NCBI RefSeq assembly: GCF_003334255.1
Contig: NZ_QOWU01000090.1
DNA: 9,233 nt
From: Escherichia coli
GTDB lineage: Bacteria; Pseudomonadota; Gammaproteobacteria; Enterobacterales; Enterobacteriaceae
Strand: one strand, 5' to 3'
Shown here one piece after another: positions 77 to 9,233 of this stretch. The translations under genes and the position numbers were made by a program. The notes below the pieces were generated by a model, which did not search any database, had not been told where the DNA came from, and saw nothing but the letters and a program-made list of their open reading frames with translations. Position 1 is the stretch's first letter. Every line of letters starts with the position of its first letter.

Positions 77-96
77 GGGGGGAAGTCCCCCTTTTT
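77..96 (+). terminator. Possible intrinsic terminator ending a transcript that enters from the left edge
   Basis: GGGGG(77-81) / CCCCC(87-91) stem with 5-nt loop, immediately followed by TTTTT (92-96). The T-run is only on the + strand side. Short stem, so only moderate support. Confidence 0.4.
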
Positions 97-404
97 AACG
101 TCATTTTATGCAGGGAATGTGTAGTTCTACACAGATTCTATGCAGTATCGGTATAGTCCCTTTTTATTCTAACTTATTGAAATATATAAAGAATCTGCAA
201 AGCCTCTTTTCAGGGAGCTATGCAGGGTGTTAGTCGTCCCTCTCCAGACACTACATATAGTGCTATATACAGGGCTATATAACGATATATAGATGTTTGG
301 TCACATGGTGTAACTATCAAGAAACTTAATAGTTTCCTATGTGAAAGTTATTTCTGAGGGTGGGTAAGTGCTCAGGAGATTTCATGAGGATAATTCTTAT
401 CCGA

Positions 405-445
405 ATCATCACGTAGAACACGCTTAAGCACAGATACAAAAAAGC
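405..445 (+). repeat. Diverged member of the intergenic repeat family (shares ACGTAGnnCACGCTTAA and ACAGATAC..AAAAA sub-motifs with the 6874-6937 element)
   Basis: 409-428 cacgtagaacacgcttaagc matches 6921-6939 acgtagctcacgcttaaag at 15/17; 430-445 cacagatacaaaaaag resembles aacagata..caaaaa in the repeats at 6874 and 9113. Permuted order, so the relationship is weaker than between the two main copies. Confidence 0.3.
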
Positions 446-486
446 CCCCATGAAGGAGGCTATGAATCTATGCAGGTGATGAGAAA

Positions 487-1029
487 TTATTCAGCTTTAA
501 TACGCTGTACAGTTGACTTGGCAACGTTGAATTGAGCGGCTACTTTAGCGATTGAACTACCAGCAGCAAGAGCAGCTTTAATACCTTCTCTGTCAACCGC
601 TTTACCGTTACCCCTTCCAACTACACGACCAGCAGCTTTAGCAGCTTCATAACCTTCTCTTTGACGCTCAAGCATCATTTTACGTTCAGCTTCAGCCACT
701 GCTGAAAAGATTGTGAGAATCATCTTAGACGTGGGGTTATCGTCACCAGTTATCAGACCTTCTTTGTGAAAGTGAACCTTGATACCTTTCTGTGAAAGTT
801 TATCCACCAGCGTTAATACATCCACGGTAGAGCGCCCTAAACGTGACAGGTCGTGTACATGGATAGTGTCACCTTCACGAACATAATCGAGCATAGCCTT
901 TAGTTGTGGACGGTCTGTATTCTTCCCAGATGCTTTATCAGTAAATACCTTATCCAGTACGACCCCTTCAAGTTGACGGTCTGTAATCTGCTGGATTGAT
1001 GAAACTCGAACATAACCAATGTTAGCCAT
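487..1029 (-). CDS. Small serine recombinase (resolvase / DNA invertase family)
   Basis: Translation MANIGYVRVSS.Q...Q... gives the catalytic-serine N-terminus typical of Hin/Gin/Tn3-type serine recombinases (Ser at position 10 when started at the second Met), DLSRLGRS motif, and a C-terminal GR..GR..-HTH (SIAKVAAQFNVAKSTVQRI). The ORF track extends to 1053 (8 more residues, MSKANEYI); I prefer the internal ATG at 1027-1029 because it places the catalytic Ser at the canonical position, but the SD is weak for both starts. Confidence 0.85.
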   Translation of the reverse strand: MANIGYVRVSSIQQITDRQLEGVVLDKVFTDKASGKNTDRPQLKAMLDYVREGDTIHVHDLSRLGRSTVDVLTLVDKLSQKGIKVHFHKEGLITGDDNPTSKMILTIFSAVAEAERKMMLERQREGYEAAKAAGRVVGRGNGKAVDREGIKAALAAGSSIAKVAAQFNVAKSTVQRIKAE

Positions 1030-1363
1030 AATATACTCATTTGCCTTACTCATTTGATGGATTGAGTATAACGTACCGATAAAGTGTTTTACAAGGCTAA
1101 TCGGTATGGTTTTTACAGGGGGTTAGCTATACCTTTTTAGTATGCTATATCGGTATGCCTAAGAGATGGAGATGCCTTTACAGCAACTCACATAGAAAGT
1201 CAATAGATATTTGGCTTTTTTGCAAAGGGGGTCACATAGCTGGTGTGACGGGTACTTAGCAGGTATAGACCTGTGATAGATATTTTCGAAGATTCGGGGA
1301 AGATGAGATTCAAAGAGGGCTAGTCATTTTTTATAAAAATTTTCAGACTCTGAAAAGTTACTG

Positions 1364-1468
1364 TACAGATTTTATACAGATATCTTTAAAGTATCTGTAA
1401 AGACTTTTAAGATAAGAGATAGATATCCCAGAAAGGATATCCGTTTAGAAAACCTGTTAAGTATCTCT
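1364..1468. repeat. Cluster of dyad-symmetric elements in the recombinase / methyltransferase divergent intergenic region (candidate operators or recombinase binding sites)
   Basis: TACAGAT direct repeat (1364-1370, 1375-1381); 8-bp inverted arms TACAGATA (1375-1382) / TATCTGTA (1392-1399) with 9-bp spacer; GATATCC (1422-1428) / GGATATC (1435-1441) with 6-bp spacer; AGAGATA (1415-1421) / TATCTCT (1462-1468). Each alone could be chance; the clustering is the evidence. Confidence 0.4.
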
Positions 1469-1521
1469 TAAAAGAGAGTAAACCTTGTCAATAGTGATTG
1501 CAATAAAAATTTTTATTTCTT

Positions 1522-2184
1522 ATGTCAATTGAGCATATTTTAATCGGGAAACATCATGGGGGTTCTGATTACTGGAGAACTCCATTTCTTATATTCCGCA
1601 ATTTGCACCGTGAGTTTAGTTTCAGTCTGGATGGTGCTGCAACTGAGCATGACACGCTGTTACCACGATTCACCAATGATATTCACAATCAGTCATGGGA
1701 TGGTGAACGGGTGTTCTGTAACCCACCATACAGCGACACTAAAACATTCCTCCTAAAAGCCGCTGAAGCGGATTTAGCGGTATTCCTGATACCGTACCGA
1801 CCCCACACCACATACTGGCTTAAGCACCTCTTCACAAACCCGCTTTGCCATGAAATCCGTATTCTTCATCGTGCAGTTAAATACCTTCCACCAGCAGGGC
1901 ATAACGGGCTTGCTATTAGGTCACCGTTTGCAAGTGCAATTGTCATCTTTAAAACTGAGCCACGCAGACATGAAATTACGCAGATGATTTGCTGTGCTGA
2001 TACATTGCTACCGTTAACCATCATTAACAGAGGAGGCTTAAGAGGAAGACCCACCATTTACCCACCTGAGACGCTCGACAGCTTCATAAAGCTATACAGG
2101 CAAGGAAAACCCATTAAGTGCATTGCAGATGCTCTCAGAATGCCTCTGAGCACGTCATACAGGATTGCGCAAAGGTTGAGCTAA
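1522..2184 (+). CDS. Phage-type DNA N6-adenine methyltransferase (Dam-like, NPPY family) with a C-terminal resolvase-type helix-turn-helix
   Basis: N-terminal ~150 aa carry DYWRTP...FSLDGAATEH...RFT...WDGERVFCNPPYS...PFASAIVIF, the motif order of the phage Dam N6-adenine methyltransferase family (catalytic NPPY). The C-terminal ~55 aa, NRGGLRGRPTIYPPETLDSFIKLYRQGKPIKCIADALRMPLSTSYRIAQR, follow the GRP...HTH pattern of Hin/resolvase DNA-binding domains. No convincing SD precedes the ATG at 1522, so the start is uncertain. Confidence 0.8.
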   Translation: MSIEHILIGKHHGGSDYWRTPFLIFRNLHREFSFSLDGAATEHDTLLPRFTNDIHNQSWDGERVFCNPPYSDTKTFLLKAAEADLAVFLIPYRPHTTYWLKHLFTNPLCHEIRILHRAVKYLPPAGHNGLAIRSPFASAIVIFKTEPRRHEITQMICCADTLLPLTIINRGGLRGRPTIYPPETLDSFIKLYRQGKPIKCIADALRMPLSTSYRIAQRLS

Positions 2185-2550
2185 AATTCTCATAAATATG
2201 GCCATTTACAAGACAGGTGATTTAGATATTAAGAAGTATCCCTGTGAACAATAAATGACCAATCAGTAATTATTCTGTGAAATAATTGTTGCAATCTATA
2301 ATCACACATGATATAGTTTCATAGTGGGCTGATAAAAAAGTTCATGTCTTGAAGTGGTAACACTTGGGGAGGTGTCAGATGATTGACGTCAACAAGACCT
2401 CTCATTCAGGGTAATTACCTCAGCGTTTTAATCATCGTACTGTTTCAGGCATGGACTTCTTTATCAGTCCATCAATCCCCCAGATATTTTAATCACACAG
2501 GCTAATCGGTTTTATCCGGTTGGCCTTTTCACGTATGAGGTAATTTATGA

Positions 2551-3489
2551 ATGTCTAAATATAACCCAAATCAGTTTTATAAATTTGATGTGCGAATCTC
2601 TCAGCTTTCAGAAGAAATTAACGCAGCAGCAAGATTAATTTATATGGTCATGGTTCATAGCTGTGATTTCTATGAAGAGAAGTACAAAGCATATTCACCA
2701 AGTATTGACCATCTAGCTTATATGGCTGGTGTTTCAAAGAGAACGGCAATCAGAGCTATTGAGACACTTGAGAAACACGGTTTAATTCAGGTGCAAAAGA
2801 ATCAGGGTCGTCAAAGCACTTATCGTGTATTCACACTGGATGATAAGCCGGAATTACTTGTAAGACCTACATCACAGGAAGTTGCAGCCTCAGTAAGACA
2901 AAATGACACCACTACCAGTGACAAAATGTCATCAGTACCAGTGACAAAATGTCATGGGGGTAGTGACAAAATGTCACCCGTGTTAGATAAGTTATTAGAT
3001 AAAACATTAGATAATAATATTATAGATAAGAGTAAAGATACTGAACTTGATGTTGGTATCAATGAAGATGATTTTCTTTCTTTGGATGAATTAAATGATT
3101 TTCTCTCTATGAATGAATCTGACCTTGATAGTGAAGCTACTAAAGAGACCTCTAAAACATCTGACTTAGAGGAAGATAAAATCTCTGATGTGAATGAAGT
3201 TAGTGACCAGCAAGATACACCTTGCCGCCTCGAATCAACTGATGATGAATTACCGGATGTTGACCTTGATGATGAAGAAGACCCTGAAGAGGAATTGAAA
3301 CGTGAACAGCGTAAAGCAGAAATTAAAGAAAGATTCAGAAAGGCAAAGCTAAAGAACAGGATTGATGAACTTGATGACTTTGATGATAGTGACGATGATT
3401 TTACTTTTACACCAAAAAAGAAAACTCACACCGAGCCAAAGAAAGAAAAAGTTAAAGTCAGACGTGTTTATGCTGGAGGAATGTTTTAA
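2551..3489 (+). CDS. Replication initiator, lambda O-like (N-terminal winged-helix DNA-binding region, iterons inside the gene, highly acidic C-terminal tail)
   Basis: SD GAGG at 2537-2540. N-terminal 100 aa (…IDHLAYMAGVSKRTAIRAIETLEKHGLIQV…STYRV) look like a winged-helix replication-initiator domain. The middle of the gene holds an iteron array plus an AT-rich tract. The C-terminus is low-complexity acidic (DDELPDVDLDDEEDPEE…DDFDDSDDD). The functional call rests on architecture and was not confirmed by a homology search. Confidence 0.65.
   Translation: MSKYNPNQFYKFDVRISQLSEEINAAARLIYMVMVHSCDFYEEKYKAYSPSIDHLAYMAGVSKRTAIRAIETLEKHGLIQVQKNQGRQSTYRVFTLDDKPELLVRPTSQEVAASVRQNDTTTSDKMSSVPVTKCHGGSDKMSPVLDKLLDKTLDNNIIDKSKDTELDVGINEDDFLSLDELNDFLSMNESDLDSEATKETSKTSDLEEDKISDVNEVSDQQDTPCRLESTDDELPDVDLDDEEDPEEELKREQRKAEIKERFRKAKLKNRIDELDDFDDSDDDFTFTPKKKTHTEPKKEKVKVRRVYAGGMF
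2894..2976. repeat. Iteron array: four copies of a ~15-bp dyad element (consensus AGTGACAAAATGTCA) at 22-23 bp spacing, inside the rep coding sequence
   Basis: Exact copies at 2917-2931, 2940-2954 and 2962-2976; a degenerate copy (11/15) at 2894-2908. Arms TGACA / TGTCA are inverted repeats. The period is not a multiple of 3, so the encoded peptide (SDKMSSVPVTKCHGGSDKMSPV) is not itself repeated; conservation is at the DNA level. Confidence 0.65.
2981..3060. other. AT-rich tract with phased TAGATAA repeats immediately after the iterons (candidate DNA-unwinding element of an embedded origin)
   Basis: TAGATAA at 2984, 2996, 3008 and 3023 (about 12-bp phase) within a very AT-rich stretch (gttagataagttattagataaaacattagataataatattatagataag). 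Position relative to the iterons mirrors the lambda origin layout. Confidence 0.45.
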
Positions 3490-3779
3490 TGAAAGAATAT
3501 AACGGTGAAAAACGATACAAAGATTATCTATTAAGGCGCTACAGCATTTCTCGTGAAGGTCATCTTCTGAAAGATACTCATGGGGAGGTTTACCGGATTC
3601 GACCGAAGAAGGAAGGAAAGAATTATTTCTTTTTTGATGGTGTGACAGATTTAAAGATTGACGCTTTGAGGTTTGCAGTGATGTATCATTTTGATGTCTG
3701 GGATTCAGTCCACCAGCTACGATTAAAAGACGGTGACCCCGGTAATCTGAAGGCCACCAATATCATCACAAAACGTTAG
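3489..3779 (+). CDS. Hypothetical 96-aa protein with weak NUMOD4 / HNH-like resemblance
   Basis: Start ATG overlaps the rep stop (TAATG at 3487-3491), suggesting translational coupling. YSISREGHLLKDTHGEVYRI resembles the NUMOD4 motif and VHQLRLKDGDPGNLKATNI loosely resembles the HNH_3 core, but the canonical catalytic His/Asn positions are not all present. The coding call is reasonable; the functional call is weak. Confidence 0.5.
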   Translation: MKEYNGEKRYKDYLLRRYSISREGHLLKDTHGEVYRIRPKKEGKNYFFFDGVTDLKIDALRFAVMYHFDVWDSVHQLRLKDGDPGNLKATNIITKR

Positions 3780-3961
3780 TTTGTTTTACCATCATCAATC
3801 GTAATTGTGATTTCATATTTGAAAAGCTTAATGCTGAAATTGAATCGTGTACTTTTGGCGATAATCATTTTTAAAAGCTGATACACCAGAAGCACCAGAA
3901 ACACAAAGCAACCTAAGCTTGCGAATCTGTGAGATTCAGCAATTGTTTCAAGAAAGCCCAT
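3776..3961 (-). CDS. Small hydrophobic protein (61 aa, one predicted transmembrane helix), convergent with and overlapping the 3' end of the upstream + strand gene
   Basis: On the minus strand, AAGGGGA is followed 4 nt later by the ATG (3959-3961). Hydrophobic segment LGCFVFLVLLVYQLLKMII. An upstream CCCTT / AAGGG hairpin (3968-3985) could sequester the SD. A promoter-like element lies upstream (see 4012-4040). Function unknown. Confidence 0.4.
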   Translation of the reverse strand: MGFLETIAESHRFASLGCFVFLVLLVYQLLKMIIAKSTRFNFSIKLFKYEITITIDDGKTN

Positions 3962-4011
3962 TAATTCCCCTTATTTATCAAAGGGAATGACCTGTATCAG
4001 CCCCTATAACC

Positions 4012-4040
4012 ATAATATCATGTAAATGAGATGTTGACAA
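4012..4040 (-). promoter_or_regulatory. Candidate sigma70-type promoter for the small minus-strand ORF
   Basis: Minus-strand reading: TTGTCA (complement of 4035-4040), 17-bp spacer, TATTAT (complement of 4012-4017). The -35 overlaps the -35 of the divergent + strand promoter. Match quality is moderate; not unlikely by chance in AT-rich DNA. Confidence 0.35.
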
Positions 4041-4062
4041 TATGTTAAATAAATGTTAAGAT
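4034..4062 (+). promoter_or_regulatory. Candidate sigma70-type promoter for the 4099-5374 small-gene cassette
   Basis: TTGACA (4034-4039), 17-bp spacer, TAAGAT (4057-4062; 4/6 to TATAAT), about 37 bp upstream of the ATG at 4099. ATGTT recurs at 4031, 4042 and 4053 (~11-bp phase) across the element. Confidence 0.35.
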
Positions 4063-4098
4063 TGTAGTATGAGTAAGAGATTTAAGGAGATTTTTACA

Positions 4099-4389
4099 AT
4101 GACTCACACAGTTACGCGCCTTTTGCCAGAGGCATTTGAACGACTGGCAGCAATCAAAGCCAAATATCCCGATATGAAGCACACAGCGCTTGTTGCAGAG
4201 GTTTTAAAAGAGCCGGTAGACTTGACCCCTTTCGATAACGTTAAGGGCGTTGCAGAGGGTTCTAAGGCCATCAGAATCACAACGGGCCAACTGGAACTAC
4301 TCAAAGCACAGTCCGCAGTAGCAGGTTGCTCAATGATTCAGGTCTTAAGCGCAAAGGTTCATCAATTAGCGGATAAGCTGGGGGTTTAA
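4099..4389 (+). CDS. Hypothetical small DNA-binding protein; two consecutive ribbon-helix-helix-like segments
   Basis: SD AAGGAG at 4083-4088, ATG at 4099 (the ORF track's 4069 start lacks an SD). Residues TVTRLLPEAFERLAAIKAKYP…ALVAEVL and AIRITTGQLELLKAQSAVAGCSMIQVLSAKV each fit a beta-strand / helix / turn / helix (Arc/CopG-like) pattern. Assigned by eye only. Confidence 0.6.
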   Translation: MTHTVTRLLPEAFERLAAIKAKYPDMKHTALVAEVLKEPVDLTPFDNVKGVAEGSKAIRITTGQLELLKAQSAVAGCSMIQVLSAKVHQLADKLGV

Positions 4390-4814
4390 TGCTATGTACA
4401 TTTGATTATCATGCGTTTTATCGACATAGAGGTCATCTTGTCCGTGAGAATAACGGAACATGGAAAGATTTAACTCGTAATGCTGAACCCTTCACACACC
4501 AGCAATTAAAATCCCGCTTCTCCAGATGGAAGAATGCACCAGCAGATACTGGTGATTTTGAGATTATCCATACCTTCGATTATGCCTCAGAAGATGACCT
4601 TCACGATGCAATTAAGCTGATTGAAGACTTCAATACCTCAGAAAATGTGGATGGTGACAAATATAAATCCCGTGGTAACCGCTATAACCGTGATGATATC
4701 ACTCAGGCCATAAATGCTGGTCAATCTCAGCGATACATTACAGAAAAATATGGTATTTCACGGAGACAGTATTTCTACGTTAAATCATTGATTAATAAAG
4801 ACAATTCAAAATAA
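4389..4814 (+). CDS. Hypothetical 141-aa protein with a C-terminal HTH-like segment
   Basis: Start overlaps the upstream stop (TAATG at 4387-4391), suggesting translational coupling. C-terminus DDITQAINAGQSQRYITEKYGISRRQYFYV resembles an HTH. No recognisable catalytic motif. Confidence 0.6.
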   Translation: MLCTFDYHAFYRHRGHLVRENNGTWKDLTRNAEPFTHQQLKSRFSRWKNAPADTGDFEIIHTFDYASEDDLHDAIKLIEDFNTSENVDGDKYKSRGNRYNRDDITQAINAGQSQRYITEKYGISRRQYFYVKSLINKDNSK

Positions 4815-4820
4815 CCATCT

Positions 4821-4920
4821 CAGTAACGGTAGAATGCACTTTACAGGCAGAGTTGCACCTTAATTTGATAAATTACCTTACCAGCCAGTGCAACTCCCTC
4901 TGTAACCCGCATGGTTACTG
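4821..4920. repeat. About 100-bp interrupted inverted repeat (three collinear helices of 7, 6 and 9 bp around a 28-nt AT-rich centre) in the intergenic region
   Basis: CAGTAAC (4821-4827) pairs with GTTACTG (4914-4920); TTACAG (4841-4846) with CTGTAA (4900-4905); GAGTTGCAC (4851-4859) with GTGCAACTC (4888-4896). The central loop is cttaatttgataaattaccttaccagcca. Confidence 0.45.
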
Positions 4921-4973
4921 GCCTCAGAATGGCTATTTTAAGAGGTCTGAGATGTGTTTTAGAGGAATTTAAA

Positions 4974-5297
4974 ATGAGCAATTACGAATTACAGATTTTC
5001 GTTGATAACGACACCGCTATGATGATTCAGGCTTTCAGTGATTCCGGTGTATCAATTGATTTTGACAGGCTGTTAAAGCTGATGGCTGATAATGCAGAAA
5101 ACATCTCTGACTTTATTCAGTCGGTGGAGTTTAACGAGCCTCGAATGATGCTACCAATTACCGACTCAAACATGAAAAGATTGGTTATCGAGCAAACGAA
5201 CAAACACAGTATTTCCCCAGAGCAATTTTTGAAAGGTGCTGTGACAATCCTGCACAGCGATAATATTCTGGTGACGGATTCTATGAGGGTTCACTAA
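4974..5297 (+). CDS. Hypothetical 107-aa protein
   Basis: SD-like AGAGGAA about 8 nt upstream of the ATG at 4974; the ORF track's longer start at 4911 lies inside the inverted-repeat element and lacks an SD. No recognisable motifs and no Cys residues. Confidence 0.6.
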   Translation: MSNYELQIFVDNDTAMMIQAFSDSGVSIDFDRLLKLMADNAENISDFIQSVEFNEPRMMLPITDSNMKRLVIEQTNKHSISPEQFLKGAVTILHSDNILVTDSMRVH

Positions 5298-5374
5298 TGG
5301 GATTGATAATTGCTTGGACAGCTTTAGGTTTATTTGTTGGTTGCTGGGTGGGCAACACAGTAAATAAGAATTGA
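5297..5374 (+). CDS. Candidate 25-aa hydrophobic peptide (MGLIIAWTALGLFVGCWVGNTVNKN), coupled to the upstream gene
   Basis: ATG overlaps the stop of the 107-aa gene (TAATG at 5295-5299). The ORF is a single hydrophobic helix-length segment with a polar tail. It is below the ORF-track size cutoff and could be fortuitous. Confidence 0.3.
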   Translation: MGLIIAWTALGLFVGCWVGNTVNKN

Positions 5375-5398
5375 TGTTACCAATCTGTTAAAAAGCTG

Positions 5399-5427
5399 TT
5401 GACAAATAACCTTAAGCATGGCATAAT
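5399..5427 (+). promoter_or_regulatory. Near-consensus sigma70 promoter (TTGACA, 17-bp spacer, CATAAT)
   Basis: TTGACA at 5399-5404, exactly 17 bp of spacer, CATAAT at 5422-5427. Predicted start near 5434-5436. A GGATAG / CTATCC hairpin sits at about +5 to +22 (5439-5456). Confidence 0.55.
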
Positions 5428-5622
5428 TGTATATATGAGGATAGTCTTCTATCCGAAGTCTATAGGAAGAGCAATTTTTCCTAAAATCATATTTTCAATA
5501 ATCCGATGGATGGATATTCTGAGTTGGAAAGGTGCAATGCTTTTCGTCATGGCCTTTCAGTTTAGTCTGAGAGGTCATCTCAAAAAGTGCTTAATCATTC
5601 ATTATTGAACCCTTACAGCTTT

Positions 5623-5652
5623 GCCCTAACTCATGATTAGGGCGTTTTCTTT
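5623..5652 (+). terminator. Intrinsic terminator
   Basis: GCCCTAA (5623-5629) / TTAGGGC (5637-5643) 7-bp stem with 7-nt loop, followed by GTTTTCTTT. Confidence 0.55.
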
Positions 5653-5723
5653 AAGAGTTTTGAAACAGAGCTTTTAAAGAAAGTTTTCCTGAAACTTCGT
5701 TAACGTTATAAGCAAACCTTCAA

Positions 5724-5756
5724 AGCCCTTCACAGATTATGTTTAGGGCTTTTCTT
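5724..5756 (+). terminator. Second, related terminator-like hairpin
   Basis: AGCCCT (5724-5729) / AGGGCT (5745-5750), extendable to 8 bp, with a 15-nt loop and TTTCTT tail. Sequence is related to the first terminator (…gccct…tagggc.ttttctt.a..agag). Confidence 0.4.
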
Positions 5757-5853
5757 AATAGAGCATCTTTAATAAATCGTTAAGTCATCTTCTAAGTGTA
5801 TTGGCGTTGAAGGTGCTCTATTAAGAAATAACCACACTTAGAGGAAAAAAATA

Positions 5854-6564
5854 ATGACAAACGATATTTACATTAATGGCAAAGTGATTGATAGCTTCGG
5901 TGACTGGTCACCACAGACTGAACATCCAGCTATCGCTATTCAGCGCAAAGAGCACGATGCGAGAATTGCACTTGAGCAATCGCTAAAGATGACACCAAAG
6001 GAAATTACCTTTGTGGCTCCTGAACCTCAAGAGATGCCCGATATTGGCAAAACTGAAGCATTATTTAATCTTGAGCGCGAATATTACCCACAGTTAAAAG
6101 AACAGCGCCTTAGATTAGATGACGCTTACAGCAAAGTTACCTTGATGCAATCAGCTATTGAGCCGTCAGAATTTGAGATTCAGGATGAATTGTCACAGAA
6201 ACCATTTGTCTATTACCAATACGAAGACAATGATGGTTTTGGTACTTTTCCAGAAAACATCACAGGCGTGATTAGTAGTCTTCCTGATGGATATCGAATT
6301 GTGAAGATGGTTAAAGCTTCAAGAGGTGCTGGTCAGTTTATTTACATGACCAATAAGAGCGATGAAGAACTCCGTGAAATTGCCAGACAGAACATCTTGG
6401 CATCACGTAACAAGCAACTTGAAAATGTTAAGTTGTATCTCTCAAGAGAGCTTCAGGCTATGAAAGAGCTTGTTAGTGAATATGAGTCGCAGAAGAAGAT
6501 TGCTATGCAAGCCGATATTGAGCAGCTTACGAAGATTTCTCAGAAGTATAGCAAAGCGATTTAA
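5854..6564 (+). CDS. Hypothetical 236-aa protein with a coiled-coil-like C-terminus
   Basis: SD GAGGAA at 5839-5844 with good spacing to the ATG at 5854. C-terminal third is rich in heptad-like E/K/Q/L. No recognisable catalytic motif. Confidence 0.7.
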   Translation: MTNDIYINGKVIDSFGDWSPQTEHPAIAIQRKEHDARIALEQSLKMTPKEITFVAPEPQEMPDIGKTEALFNLEREYYPQLKEQRLRLDDAYSKVTLMQSAIEPSEFEIQDELSQKPFVYYQYEDNDGFGTFPENITGVISSLPDGYRIVKMVKASRGAGQFIYMTNKSDEELREIARQNILASRNKQLENVKLYLSRELQAMKELVSEYESQKKIAMQADIEQLTKISQKYSKAI

Positions 6565-6580
6565 TTTAAGTGAGGTGAGA

Positions 6581-6796
6581 ATGATTGATTTGCAACAGCG
6601 TTATGAAACTATTAAGTCGGCTTGTGAAAACTTAAAGTTACAAACCAAGCCAGCCTTAAGAATTAAAACCAAACATCAAATTATCACCTCACACAAACCA
6701 AAAACACGCAAGATTCCAAAGTGGTGTATTGACCGTATTCCTTCTGATGCTCAAATCATAGGTGAAACGGAATTACATTATCTTGTCCGACATTAA
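6581..6796 (+). CDS. Hypothetical small basic protein (71 aa)
   Basis: SD GAGGTGAG at 6572-6579, ATG at 6581. The same frame stays open upstream and overlaps the last ~95 nt of the 236-aa gene in the +1 frame (ORF track 6470-6796). Confidence 0.45.
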   Translation: MIDLQQRYETIKSACENLKLQTKPALRIKTKHQIITSHKPKTRKIPKWCIDRIPSDAQIIGETELHYLVRH

Positions 6797-6823
6797 AAAA
6801 GAATTGGTTGGGTAAAAATCAAC

Positions 6824-6866
6824 GGGAGAGATTATCGAGTGATATCGGTAGTTTCTCCCTTTTTTG
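6824..6866 (+). terminator. Intrinsic terminator
   Basis: GGGAGA (6824-6829) / TCTCCC (6854-6859) stem enclosing a structured loop, followed by a 6-T run (6860-6865). Confidence 0.65.
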
Positions 6867-6873
6867 TATGTGT

Positions 6874-6915
6874 GCTACGTGAAATCTTCTGAACAGATAT
6901 ACCCACCAAAAATTA
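6874..6915 (+). repeat. 42-bp intergenic direct repeat, copy 1 (upstream of the 688-aa gene)
   Basis: gctacgtgaaatcttctgaacagatatacccaccaaaaatta; 35/42 identical (ungapped) to 9113-9154, with the first 26 nt matching 24/26. Confidence 0.6.
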
Positions 6916-6956
6916 TTTTTTACGTAGCTCACGCTTAAAGAGGTGAAAAAATATGA

Positions 6957-9023
6957 ATGGCACAATTTAAAGTTGATGATTTTCTGATTGAGCTAGGTTT
7001 TAACTCTCAGAGGGTTTTAAAAGGTCTGGAAAAAGCCGAGAAACAAACGATGCAGGTAGCATCACGAATTGAGAAGCGATTGAATAAAGCTTTTAAAGTT
7101 AACCCTACGCCTTTAAATGATTCTCTCAAGGTCATGGAAAGAAATGTCGATAAAACTGTTTCCAAGATTGAGCAGCGTCTTAAAAACACTAAAGCGTTTA
7201 AGATTAAAACGGAAATTGAGGATACTTTAAAGCCACTTAGACAACCGAGACAGCCACGAATTAGCGGAAGCAGAGCAATTACAGCAGCGCATAGCGTGAA
7301 TATGAGCAAGCTTCGTGACTTTAATCCTATGCTTGAGAAGTATTTTAAAAGCCAGTATTACAGCTTAAGCAGTAAATCCAAGACACTTGGAAACGAAGCT
7401 TTTAATCGTGAGTTAGCAAAATTAAATCAATCTCTTCGTGAAACACTTTCTAAGTTTAACAAGACCACCAGCAAAAATAATCACAGTGAAAATGCTTCGA
7501 ATGGTCTGGATGTATTAGCTACGAGTGCAATCAAAGCAGGTACAGCCATTTATAGTTTTCAGACAGCCTTAGAAGCTTACAGGCGGATTATGGAGGTTGG
7601 TCTGAAAAAAGAAGCATCACAACGAGCGGCACAATTCGTTTTAGGTGATGAAGGTGCTAAACGAGCTACAGAATTTGTTAAGAATCTTGCTGATAGTAGT
7701 GGTGTAGACCAGATTGAAACATTAAGCAGTTTTGCTAAGTTTTCCGCTGGTGCTGGTGATATGAATGCAGACCAGAAAGAATCCTTATTTTCTAATGTGA
7801 TTGGTACATCCAGATTAATGGGGCTAAGCACCGATGAAATTAACGGGATTTTAAAAGCTTTCGAGCAGATGGCATCTAAAGGAAAGATTCAGGCTGAAGA
7901 GCTACGCGGTCAATTAGGTGACAGAATGGCAGGTGCTTTTCAGTTATTTGCCAGAAGTCTTGGGATGACTACGGAAGAATTAGACAAGGCTATGAAAGAC
8001 GGTAAGGTTCTTTCTAAAGATGTTCTCCCTAAAGTATCCGCTGAAATGGGAAAGATGATTGATAAAGCGGGAGGATGGGAAAAGATTATTAACTCTACTC
8101 AGACGCAGTTAGGCCGCTTAAGTAATTCATGGAATAATAATTTGGCCTTAATGTTCGATGGTTCACAGGAAGGTTTAACAGACTTTACAAGGTCACTGAC
8201 TAATTTACTTAATTCACTGGGTGGTCAATCTAAAAATCTTGGTGAACATTTTGGCGACTTGATGAAAAGCATGTCAAACGGTATTGATGATTTAACCACG
8301 ATTAGCTACCGAGTGCAGGGATTCTTTGACAGAGTGACCCTTGCTTACAGAGAATTAAATGACACTCAAAAAGCTGTAGCTGATGGTATCGCAAATGGCC
8401 TGTTAAGTGCATTAAAGGGACTTGCTGGTATTGTCGCTGTAAGGTCTGGTATTGGTGCTGTAGGTGGTATCTGGAACTTAATTAGGGCTATTTCCACGCT
8501 TGGGAATGTAGCAAATACAGCAGCAGGAAGAATTAATTCACGTTCTGGTGGTGTTGAAAGTGGAAAAAGTAGGCTATCTGTAGCTGATGCAATTACCAGA
8601 GTAATGATTGTCGGTATGACAACTGATGTGATTAATGCCATTGTCAAACCGTTCTATGAACGTCAGATGAGTAAGTCAGATAATCCGATTGATAAAGTTG
8701 TAAGGTCAAAGGTGGAACCCACAGACCAGGCATTAACTGGTGACATGAACTCTTTAGCCGCTGTTTTATGGGCTATGGTTCATGGCAAATCAAAAGATGT
8801 TCCACAGTTTTCACCTGAAGCATTAAATAATCTAAAAGGTCGAGTGGAAACATTCACACAAGATTTAAAGGTTATCAAGCCGTCAGTAAATATTCAGCCT
8901 CAGACAATCAATATCACAACTCAGACGGTACTTGATGGAAAGGTTATTGATGAAAGAACCACATCGCATATTAATCGTATGCAGGAAGATACCTTGATTA
9001 GCTCAGCTTACCCAGAGGAATAA
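6957..9023 (+). CDS. Tail tape-measure-like protein (688 aa)
   Basis: SD AGAGGTG at 6938-6944. Coiled-coil-like N-terminal region. Central segment …MASKGKIQAEELRGQLGDRMAGAFQLFARSLGMTTEELDKAMKDGKVLSKDVLPKVSAEM… (DNA about 7800-8050) matches the conserved pattern of the tape-measure N-terminal domain as I recall it. Followed by a Gly/Ala-rich hydrophobic stretch (GLLSALKGLAGIVAVRSGIGAVGGIWNLI). The coding call is strong; the product call is from motif memory, not a search. Confidence 0.75.
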   Translation: MAQFKVDDFLIELGFNSQRVLKGLEKAEKQTMQVASRIEKRLNKAFKVNPTPLNDSLKVMERNVDKTVSKIEQRLKNTKAFKIKTEIEDTLKPLRQPRQPRISGSRAITAAHSVNMSKLRDFNPMLEKYFKSQYYSLSSKSKTLGNEAFNRELAKLNQSLRETLSKFNKTTSKNNHSENASNGLDVLATSAIKAGTAIYSFQTALEAYRRIMEVGLKKEASQRAAQFVLGDEGAKRATEFVKNLADSSGVDQIETLSSFAKFSAGAGDMNADQKESLFSNVIGTSRLMGLSTDEINGILKAFEQMASKGKIQAEELRGQLGDRMAGAFQLFARSLGMTTEELDKAMKDGKVLSKDVLPKVSAEMGKMIDKAGGWEKIINSTQTQLGRLSNSWNNNLALMFDGSQEGLTDFTRSLTNLLNSLGGQSKNLGEHFGDLMKSMSNGIDDLTTISYRVQGFFDRVTLAYRELNDTQKAVADGIANGLLSALKGLAGIVAVRSGIGAVGGIWNLIRAISTLGNVANTAAGRINSRSGGVESGKSRLSVADAITRVMIVGMTTDVINAIVKPFYERQMSKSDNPIDKVVRSKVEPTDQALTGDMNSLAAVLWAMVHGKSKDVPQFSPEALNNLKGRVETFTQDLKVIKPSVNIQPQTINITTQTVLDGKVIDERTTSHINRMQEDTLISSAYPEE

Positions 9024-9112
9024 ACAATGTTAGAGCTACTAATATTTATTGCCACACATGGCAATCTATTAATCTTTATCTAGTATGACGATTCAACTAT
9101 GAATAGTCGAAT

Positions 9113-9154
9113 GCTACGTGATTTCTTCTGAACAGATACCAACATCAAAAATTA
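9113..9154 (+). repeat. 42-bp intergenic direct repeat, copy 2 (downstream of the 688-aa gene)
   Basis: gctacgtgatttcttctgaacagataccaacatcaaaaatta; see copy 1 at 6874-6915. Confidence 0.6.
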
Positions 9155-9233
9155 GATGAACCGCCCCGGGTTTCCTGGAGAGTGTTTTATCTGTGAACTC
9201 AGGCTGCCAGATCATTGTTTCCGATGGAAGCAT

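Follow-up and report, generated by a model that had tools for sequence, protein, structure and literature searches.

The non-coding interval at positions 5399-5756 of a 9,233-nucleotide stretch of Escherichia coli DNA (contig NZ_QOWU01000090.1 of assembly GCF_003334255.1; the whole stretch is called the window here) lies within an integrative element resembling a phage satellite, and is read here, with a probability of about 0.5, as a gate that controls termination and read-through at the start of the element's tail operon, similar in its logic to the PR'-tR' region of lambda. As such, the interval would be the control region of an operon that encodes a 236-amino-acid coiled-coil protein, a protein of ~70 amino acids, a tape-measure protein and a Dit-like distal tail protein. 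Transcription start, termination, read-through, its regulation and its regulator are inferred from sequence and comparison. The features on which the gate would depend are as follows.

5375-5400, plus strand: phased array TGTT-N7-TGTT-N7-TGTT, of which the third repeat (TGTTGACA) overlaps the -35 element; candidate operator

5399-5427, plus strand: sigma-70 promoter, TTGACA (5399-5404), 17 bp and CATAAT (5422-5427), with TG at 5419-5420 that makes an extended -10 element TGgCATAAT (5419-5427)

about 5434-5652, plus strand: predicted short non-coding RNA of ~219 nt, its 5' end placed from the -10 element and its 3' end at the tail of T1

5623-5652, plus strand: intrinsic terminator T1, stem GCCCUAA/UUAGGGC (5623-5643), tail GUUUUCUUU

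5647-5681, plus strand: spacer hairpin, in which the distal T1 tail UUCUUUAAGAG can pair with CUUUUAAAGAA over 9-11 bp

5722-5759, plus strand: intrinsic terminator T2, stem AAAGCCCU/AGGGCUUU to 5752, tail UUUUCUUAAU

5751-5828, plus strand: long hairpin H5, in which a 5' arm (5751-5773) that includes the T2 U-tract pairs with 5806-5828

5834-5856, plus strand: Shine-Dalgarno sequence AGAGGA and ATG (5854) of the first gene of the operon

4021-4057 (context 4021-4062), plus strand: second TGTT array, overlapping the -35 element of the other good promoter, TTGACA-17-TAAGAT (4034-4062)

Homologous gaps from 18 E. coli genomes, 13 IMG/VR contigs and 99 metagenome stretches gave 110-121 distinct sequences for comparison, and the gap (5375-5853) is kept in every element copy examined. 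The promoter that an initial annotation of the window had proposed at 5399-5427 is in place and is the best sigma-70 match in the window (11/12). Because at least one match of 11/12 is found in 35% of composition-matched shuffles of the window, the case for this promoter rests on its conservation: TTGACA is present in 111/112 homologous sequences with the 17-bp spacing fixed, the -10 region reads TGnCATAAT in 94 and the weaker TGnGATGAT or TGnGAAGAT in 18, and distant relatives with unrelated spacers keep the promoter (TTGACA-17-TATAAT in L137, TTGACA-17-CATAGT in L136). With regard to a Q-binding element and a sigma-70-dependent pause close to the promoter, AT-rich hexamers similar to a -10 element come after the -10 in all lineages, and are indistinguishable from base composition. 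The TGTT motifs at 5375-5400 are spaced 11 bp apart, and arrays of this kind occur in the window only there and at 4021-4057 (three observed, 0.14 expected, 0/200 shuffles). Across 78 oriented loci (823 kb), exact arrays were found 63 times at the RNA promoter, 30 times at the upstream promoter and once elsewhere, and L136 retains the array. Comparison of these loci thus identifies what is probably an operator common to both promoters; since the array that covers the -35 element recurs at the element's other promoter, its placement suggests that the promoter at 5399-5427 is regulated and not simply constitutive.

Of the two terminators that had been predicted to follow this promoter, T1 was recovered by a terminator scan and folds at -10.7 kcal/mol, whereas T2 (-14.0 kcal/mol, z-score -3.4) was missed because its loop is longer than the limit of 8 nt set for the scan. 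The claim that the second terminator is related to the first is borne out, because T1 and T2 have the same GCCCU/AGGGC stem, that of T2 extending over 5722-5752 and its tail to 5759. Two alleles of T1 occur, each the exact reverse complement of the other (GCCCTAACTCATGATTAGGGC in 23 sequences and GCCCTAATCATGAGTTAGGGC in 44), and T1 is absent in about a quarter of copies; every aligned copy has T2, the loop of which may hold insertions of up to ~40 nt. A pattern search over 113 sequences recognised both terminators in 79, a single one in 22 and neither in 12. The spacer hairpin between them is also arranged in this way in L137, and is less certain, as a hairpin next to it is a competing fold. 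A sigma-70 scan found no site of 9/12 or better from T1 to the ATG at 5854.

The hairpin H5, which begins within T2 and ends shortly before the operon, contains a perfect complement of 15 nt and folds at -37.3 kcal/mol (z-score -6.6). It is formed by 73/73 distinct downstream sequences (mean -37.6 kcal/mol, ~38 pairs, ~5 G.U pairs) and is seen with at least three unrelated arm sequences. Judged from these alleles, H5 is a plus-strand RNA structure under selection that spans T2, and because this conserved hairpin uses the U-tract of T2 as its 5' arm, RNAs that pass T2 would be expected both to exist and to matter. In the minimum-energy fold, the Shine-Dalgarno sequence of the 5854 gene is left free of pairing. 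Its sequestration by pairing of 5788-5799 with 5834-5845 was considered and set aside: it is possible, but is not the minimum-energy fold in most alleles.

Distant relatives show the same arrangement. Queried with the 236-amino-acid protein, a set of 1.8 billion representative proteins yielded five full-length relatives (26-41% identity), all of them in the same element architecture. L136 and L137, in which the downstream protein is 30-37% identical, keep the promoter, T1, T2, the hairpin formed from the U-tract and the Shine-Dalgarno sequence, but their RNA before T1 is only ~55-80 nt long and unrelated in sequence; T2 and H5 are present in all of L133, L136 and L137. Because L136 and L137 keep the one and not the other, the longest-term constraint is on the order of promoter, terminator, terminator and hairpin, and not on the body of the RNA, a result in favour of the gate. 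In L133 and L139 the RNA is of the same family but has a variant core, matched by a change in the partner strand of the core helix. L141 has the standard RNA beside a downstream protein that is only 26% identical, and therefore the leader recombines as a module.

According to the gate model, the sigma-70 promoter at 5399-5427 would fire under the influence, probably, of a protein bound to the TGTT array, and the structured RNA would mostly end at T1, with T2 as a back-up, to accumulate as a short RNA (~219 nt in this copy, typically ~190-200 nt, and 55-80 nt in distant relatives). No promoter belonging to the operon itself is recognisable, so that the operon would be expressed only from polymerases that pass both terminators. 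The read-through RNA would then fold H5 from the U-tract of T2, H5 likely acting as an RNase III or stabilising element, and the Shine-Dalgarno sequence would stay open after this folding. Read-through is presumably conditional, for example upon infection by a helper phage. If the gate is correct, the interval would offer a compact, experimentally tractable case in which late genes are gated by tandem terminators and no Q-type factor takes part, and in which the promoter, the terminators, the TGTT operator and a ribbon-helix-helix protein encoded upstream would be handles on the signal that wakes the element.

Lambdoid late control consists of the promoter PR', the 6S RNA (194 nt), the terminator tR' and the antiterminator Q. 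The likeness to this system that the initial annotation had drawn holds for the promoter, the short terminated transcript, the second terminator and the tape-measure block, all of which are conserved; the annotation was also right that no Q-like protein lies upstream. As in lambda, a strong sigma-70 promoter stands immediately before morphogenesis genes; a short non-coding transcript, abundant in lambda and predicted here, is ended by an intrinsic terminator; and the late genes lie behind a terminator without a promoter of their own. Unlike lambda, the element has two tandem terminators whose U-tracts are taken into downstream hairpins, has a TGTT array resembling an operator at the -35 element of its promoter, and encodes no protein of the Q family: the adjacent upstream gene, in which a Q-like protein had not been recognised, has no Pfam match and is predicted to have a ribbon-helix-helix fold.

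Several observations weigh against the gate. No candidate antiterminator was identified and no Q family matches; likewise, no match to boxA (TGCTCTTTAACAA-like) or ops (GGCGGTAG) was found in 5434-5853, and their counts across the window are those expected by chance. A promoter of a helper-phage type situated after T2 would escape a sigma-70 scan. In about a fifth of copies, a single terminator was recognised. The core 20-mer, the covarying hairpin H3 and the mosaic module of the RNA, which are described below, suggest an RNA with a function of its own and would be left unexplained by a pure gate. Finally, the start site, the efficiency of termination and the extent of read-through are all inferred.

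The RNA as far as just past T1 (5434-5660) folds at -64.9 kcal/mol (z-score -3.5). An Rfam scan of the whole window (E<=1) found no family for it, and gave three chance-level hits elsewhere. The open reading frame at 5399-5608 (69 amino acids), which opens at the TTG of the -35 element, was rejected as a protein-coding leader: its frame is not conserved, the invariant core lying in frames 0, 1 and 2 relative to the TTG in 39, 44 and 37 sequences, and its length varies from 13 to 69 amino acids. The leader thus holds no conserved open reading frame and is taken as non-coding, as had been supposed. Its parts, in order, are these.

5437-5463, plus strand: I1, an optional insert of 27 nt that holds a start-proximal hairpin (5439-5454, -7.6 kcal/mol)

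5464-5482, plus strand: H1, a conserved 5' hairpin, 5'-terminal in copies that have no I1

5483-5526, plus strand: variable module V, which comes in at least four types that are unrelated in sequence and each form a small hairpin of their own

5527-5546, plus strand: core 20-mer GAAAGGTGCAATGCTTTTCG, the 3' half of which pairs with CAAAAAGU at 5581-5588

5549-5578, plus strand: H3, a hairpin of 12 bp with compensatory changes

5579-5622, plus strand: A/U-rich single-stranded linker with a (CATT)n repeat (5594-5604)

The start-proximal hairpin of the initial annotation is present at 5439-5454 but is not a general feature, since the I1 insert that holds it is found in 19/113 sequences only. A second optional module related to I1, I2 (28 nt, GTGAGGTATGTTCTATACCGAACATTCT), stands before the core in 26/113 sequences and is absent from the window; it is flanked by a 7-bp direct repeat, ATTCTGA (for example in the region of L011:1022-1049). 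H1 folds in 16/16 alleles, with GC/AT exchange at five stem positions. The copy of V in the window is of type A and contains a (GGAT)n repeat (5505-5516) in which n varies from 2 to 5 between copies, and the copy number of (CATT)n in the linker varies from 1 to 4. Because the metagenome stretches were retrieved with the exact 20-mer, its invariance among them is by construction and is informative only in the set collected by BLAST, in which it is identical in 17/18 E. coli copies. The variant 20-mer of L133 and L139 (GTAAGTGCAATGCTTGCTT) retains the helix with its partners changed (GCUUgCUU/AAGaAGC).

The covariation-based structure search that had been suggested for this region found a covarying RNA on the plus strand. 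A covariance model was built on the domain from the core to T1, and, of the 98 sequences searched, all element copies gave one strong match each. In the covariance alignment, 97.9% of cells are standard pairs (92.9% in shuffles), 11 pairs have double changes (4.9 in shuffles) and the covariation score is 0.184 (0.104 in shuffles); 0/500 shuffles reach the observed values, and slid registers of the alignment drop to 31-59% paired. H3 folds in 33/33 alleles, with 9-13 bp and a mean of -16 kcal/mol. In the alignment fitted to the model (A3), six pairs of H3 are changed on both sides, and at four of its positions G.U is found in between a third and a half of the sequences. Because five weak reverse-strand matches entered A3 and contaminate helix 1, two-sided changes in helix 1 are unreliable, and H3 was relied upon instead. 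RNAalifold applied to a MAFFT alignment of the whole RNA missed H3 through register shifts, and folds of individual alleles and the covariance-model alignment were used in its place. Because H3 has compensatory pairs and many G.U pairs, this pattern of substitution shows that the plus-strand RNA is the selected folded species, and not duplex DNA or the opposite strand.

Such an RNA could instead be the product of a stand-alone gene for a trans-acting small RNA, pairing through the 20-mer and/or the variable module with mRNAs of a helper phage, the host or the element; T1 and T2 would then merely end this gene, and the tail operon would have a promoter of its own that is possibly helper-dependent. 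This is the main rival of the gate, although only about half as probable, and can be entertained tentatively, for the unit is a discrete one of ~200 nt from promoter to terminator with a 5' hairpin and a terminator tail, its covariation is strong and unmatched by any of the 500 shuffles, its 20-mer is near-invariant while its variable module is mosaic, and it recombines independently of the downstream protein, as L141 attests. There is also the precedent of SviR, an RNA of ~210 nt from the PLE satellite of Vibrio cholerae that ends at an intrinsic terminator and is situated between a variable region and a conserved gene cluster (bioRxiv 10.1101/2022.04.08.487710). Compared by architecture and not by sequence, both are intergenic RNAs of ~200 nt with their own promoter and an intrinsic terminator, conserved across variants of the element, and both are carried by satellites with a large serine recombinase, between the variable replication side and the conserved downstream cluster. 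The promoter of SviR is induced by the helper phage, however, whereas that of the element is of the sigma-70 type and close to consensus; inverted repeats stand on both sides of SviR, but the inverted repeat of the element (H5) comes after T2; and SviR has defined seeds and targets, whereas none were found here in the phage database or in the element with seeds of at least 8 nt. Specifically, a search of phage genomes (E<=10) returned no target and only chance hits, in unrelated phages; no site of at least 10 nt in the element tracks the type of the variable module; and no complement of 8-9 nt to the core is conserved (at most 10/90 loci). Against a stand-alone gene there is also the fact that the body of the RNA is not kept in L136 and L137, in which the promoter and terminators are, and that H5 requires an RNA that runs through T2. 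Thus the alternative of the initial annotation that the interval encodes one or two small regulatory RNAs gains from the covariation and from the near-invariant 20-mer, for which no target was found, and loses the second RNA, there being no promoter between T1 and T2. The gate and a trans-acting RNA are compatible. If the RNA does act in trans, it would possibly be the second small RNA known to be encoded by a satellite, after SviR.

Rather more doubtful is a combination of the two, in which the RNA would represent a new class of satellite RNAs that consist of a fixed scaffold (the 5' hairpin, the 20-mer, H3 and the terminator) and an exchangeable specificity module, by which the RNA would be retargeted to helper phages or rival elements while it gates the operon of the tape-measure and Dit-like proteins. 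The specificity module may comprise the variable types A, B, C and E, the optional modules I1 and I2, and the tetranucleotide repeats. A related possibility is that the scaffold may act in cis on RNA polymerase, allowing read-through without a protein. Like the put RNA of HK022, which brings about cis-acting, protein-independent antitermination, the RNA of the element has several hairpins directly after the promoter and before the terminators. Unlike put, its hairpin body is not conserved in L136 and L137, and because these relatives keep the terminators without that body, an essential role of the RNA body in cis is argued against.

It is improbable that the interval is a constitutive attenuator, with no dedicated antiterminator, through which a fixed small fraction of polymerases passes, regulation being exerted at initiation by way of the TGTT operator; a strong promoter and a fixed leak would then set a low level of tail-gene mRNA. 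The moderate strength of T1 and T2, with stems of 7-8 bp and interrupted U-tracts, would suit such an arrangement, as would the difference in the number of terminators between copies, the operator-like array common to both promoters and the adjoining ribbon-helix-helix gene. However, two terminators and a hairpin formed from the U-tract, maintained over deep divergence, are elaborate for a fixed attenuator, and the conserved body of the RNA would be left unexplained.

The immunity system of P4, in which complementarity between seqA, seqB and seqC and processing of the leader are involved, invites another comparison: the element is likewise satellite-like and has a strong, constitutive-looking promoter from which a leader RNA is made, and premature termination before an operon is proposed here to silence that operon. 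Control of the P4 type, whereby a short RNA would pair with its target on the same nascent transcript and force premature termination, is very improbable in this interval: there is no match to the Rfam families C4 or CI (E<=1), no complementary boxes are repeated in the leader beyond its local hairpins, no complementarity within the element tracks the variable type, and ordinary intrinsic terminators suffice to explain termination. Least credible of all is a type I antitoxin directed against the hydrophobic micro-ORF (open reading frame) of 25 amino acids at 5297-5374, for although that protein is conserved in two families and the linker at 5600-5613 of the window copy is complementary (13/14) to its ribosome-binding site and ATG (duplex of -23.9 kcal/mol), duplexes of cognate pairs (-14.4 kcal/mol) are not stronger than those of non-cognate pairs (-15.2 kcal/mol), the initiation region has GGGTTC or GGATTC irrespective of whether the linker has GAACCC or GAATCC, and translation of the micro-ORF is coupled (TAATG) to that of the upstream gene, from which it is not separately transcribed.

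The gene immediately upstream of the interval (4974-5297, plus strand) encodes a protein of ~107 amino acids that has no Pfam, PHROG or NCBIfam match, and its predicted fold, a tandem ribbon-helix-helix, resembles those of TraY, DndE and Arc. It is a candidate for the protein that binds the TGTT arrays. The open reading frame of 128 amino acids listed at 4911-5297 probably starts at an internal Met, as in RefSeq copies. The ATG of the micro-ORF (MGLIIAWTALGLFVGCWVGNTVNKN) overlaps the stop codon of this gene, and the micro-ORF is kept as a protein of either 25 or 21 amino acids, according to family, with no annotation in RefSeq copies. Within the upstream gene, the sequence at 5219-5239 (AGAGCAATTTTTGAAAGGTGC) reads as the 3' part of H1 followed directly by the first bases of the 20-mer; it occurs in some alleles only and does not co-vary with H1, and was not retained as a feature. 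Farther upstream, the ATG of the open reading frame at 4069 lies 7 nt past the -10 element (TAAGAT, 4057-4062) of the other promoter, and because of this distance its mRNA could be leaderless; RefSeq copies annotate a later start.

The element that carries the interval occupies positions 80-9145 of the window, which are part of an integrative unit of 11-12 kb, and the window ends (1-79 and 9146-9233) match ends of the IS3 family. The element was found in 569/5,426 complete E. coli genomes (~10%, at ~80-95% identity), among them strain UMNK88 (NC_017641.1, near 1,517,140-1,526,347), and in Salmonella records; a plasmid search found no homologue. Complete copies of 11-12 kb (including L001:15000-26400, L002, L133 and L137) are inserted at four or more sites, which include the stretch between yciI and tonB, the interior of yecE (a DUF72 gene), a place next to dinB, and one between genes for an MFS transporter and a lipid A acyltransferase. 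All copies have their genes in one constant order.

1, minus strand: small serine recombinase

2: Dam-like methylase

3: replication-initiator-like protein and small variable open reading frames

4: the conserved protein of ~107 amino acids and the overlapping hydrophobic micro-ORF of 21-25 amino acids

5: non-coding gap of 390-570 nt (5375-5853 in the window)

6: protein of 231-249 amino acids (236 in the window, gene 5854-6564)

7: protein of ~70 amino acids

8: tape-measure protein (6957-9023 in the window)

9: Dit-like distal tail protein

10, minus strand: large serine recombinase

This order agrees with the earlier placement of the interval between a replication and accessory side and a block containing the tape-measure gene. 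The copy in the window lacks the genes of the Dit-like protein and the large recombinase that follow the tape-measure gene in complete copies. The element has no capsid or terminase genes, and neither tRNA nor tmRNA was found in the window. The tape-measure protein is ~28% identical over its full length to tape-measure proteins of Felix O1-like myoviruses of Escherichia and Salmonella, and the element looks like a phage satellite, of a family apparently undescribed; literature searches on the element, its protein accessions and the 20-mer found no description. The resemblance is also a lead to the helper phage. If the gate is correct, it would act as the switch that regulates a family of mobile elements widespread in E. 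coli, which carries its own tape-measure and distal-tail genes and occurs in about one in ten complete genomes.

The 236-amino-acid protein (5854-6564) is often labelled as a transposase in RefSeq; the label seems unfounded, because the protein has no Pfam, PHROG, NCBIfam or PADLOC match, and is modelled as a long coiled coil into which a small alpha/beta portion is inserted; a fold search matched it to coiled coils of a generic kind only. Two metagenome contigs give hints of a circular form of the element: L034, a metagenome contig of 11,233 bp, has a terminal overlap of 55 bp, and L135 (11,280 bp) is circularly permuted such that the gene of the large recombinase adjoins the gene of the left end. 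Together these contigs suggest that the element exists in a free circular form.

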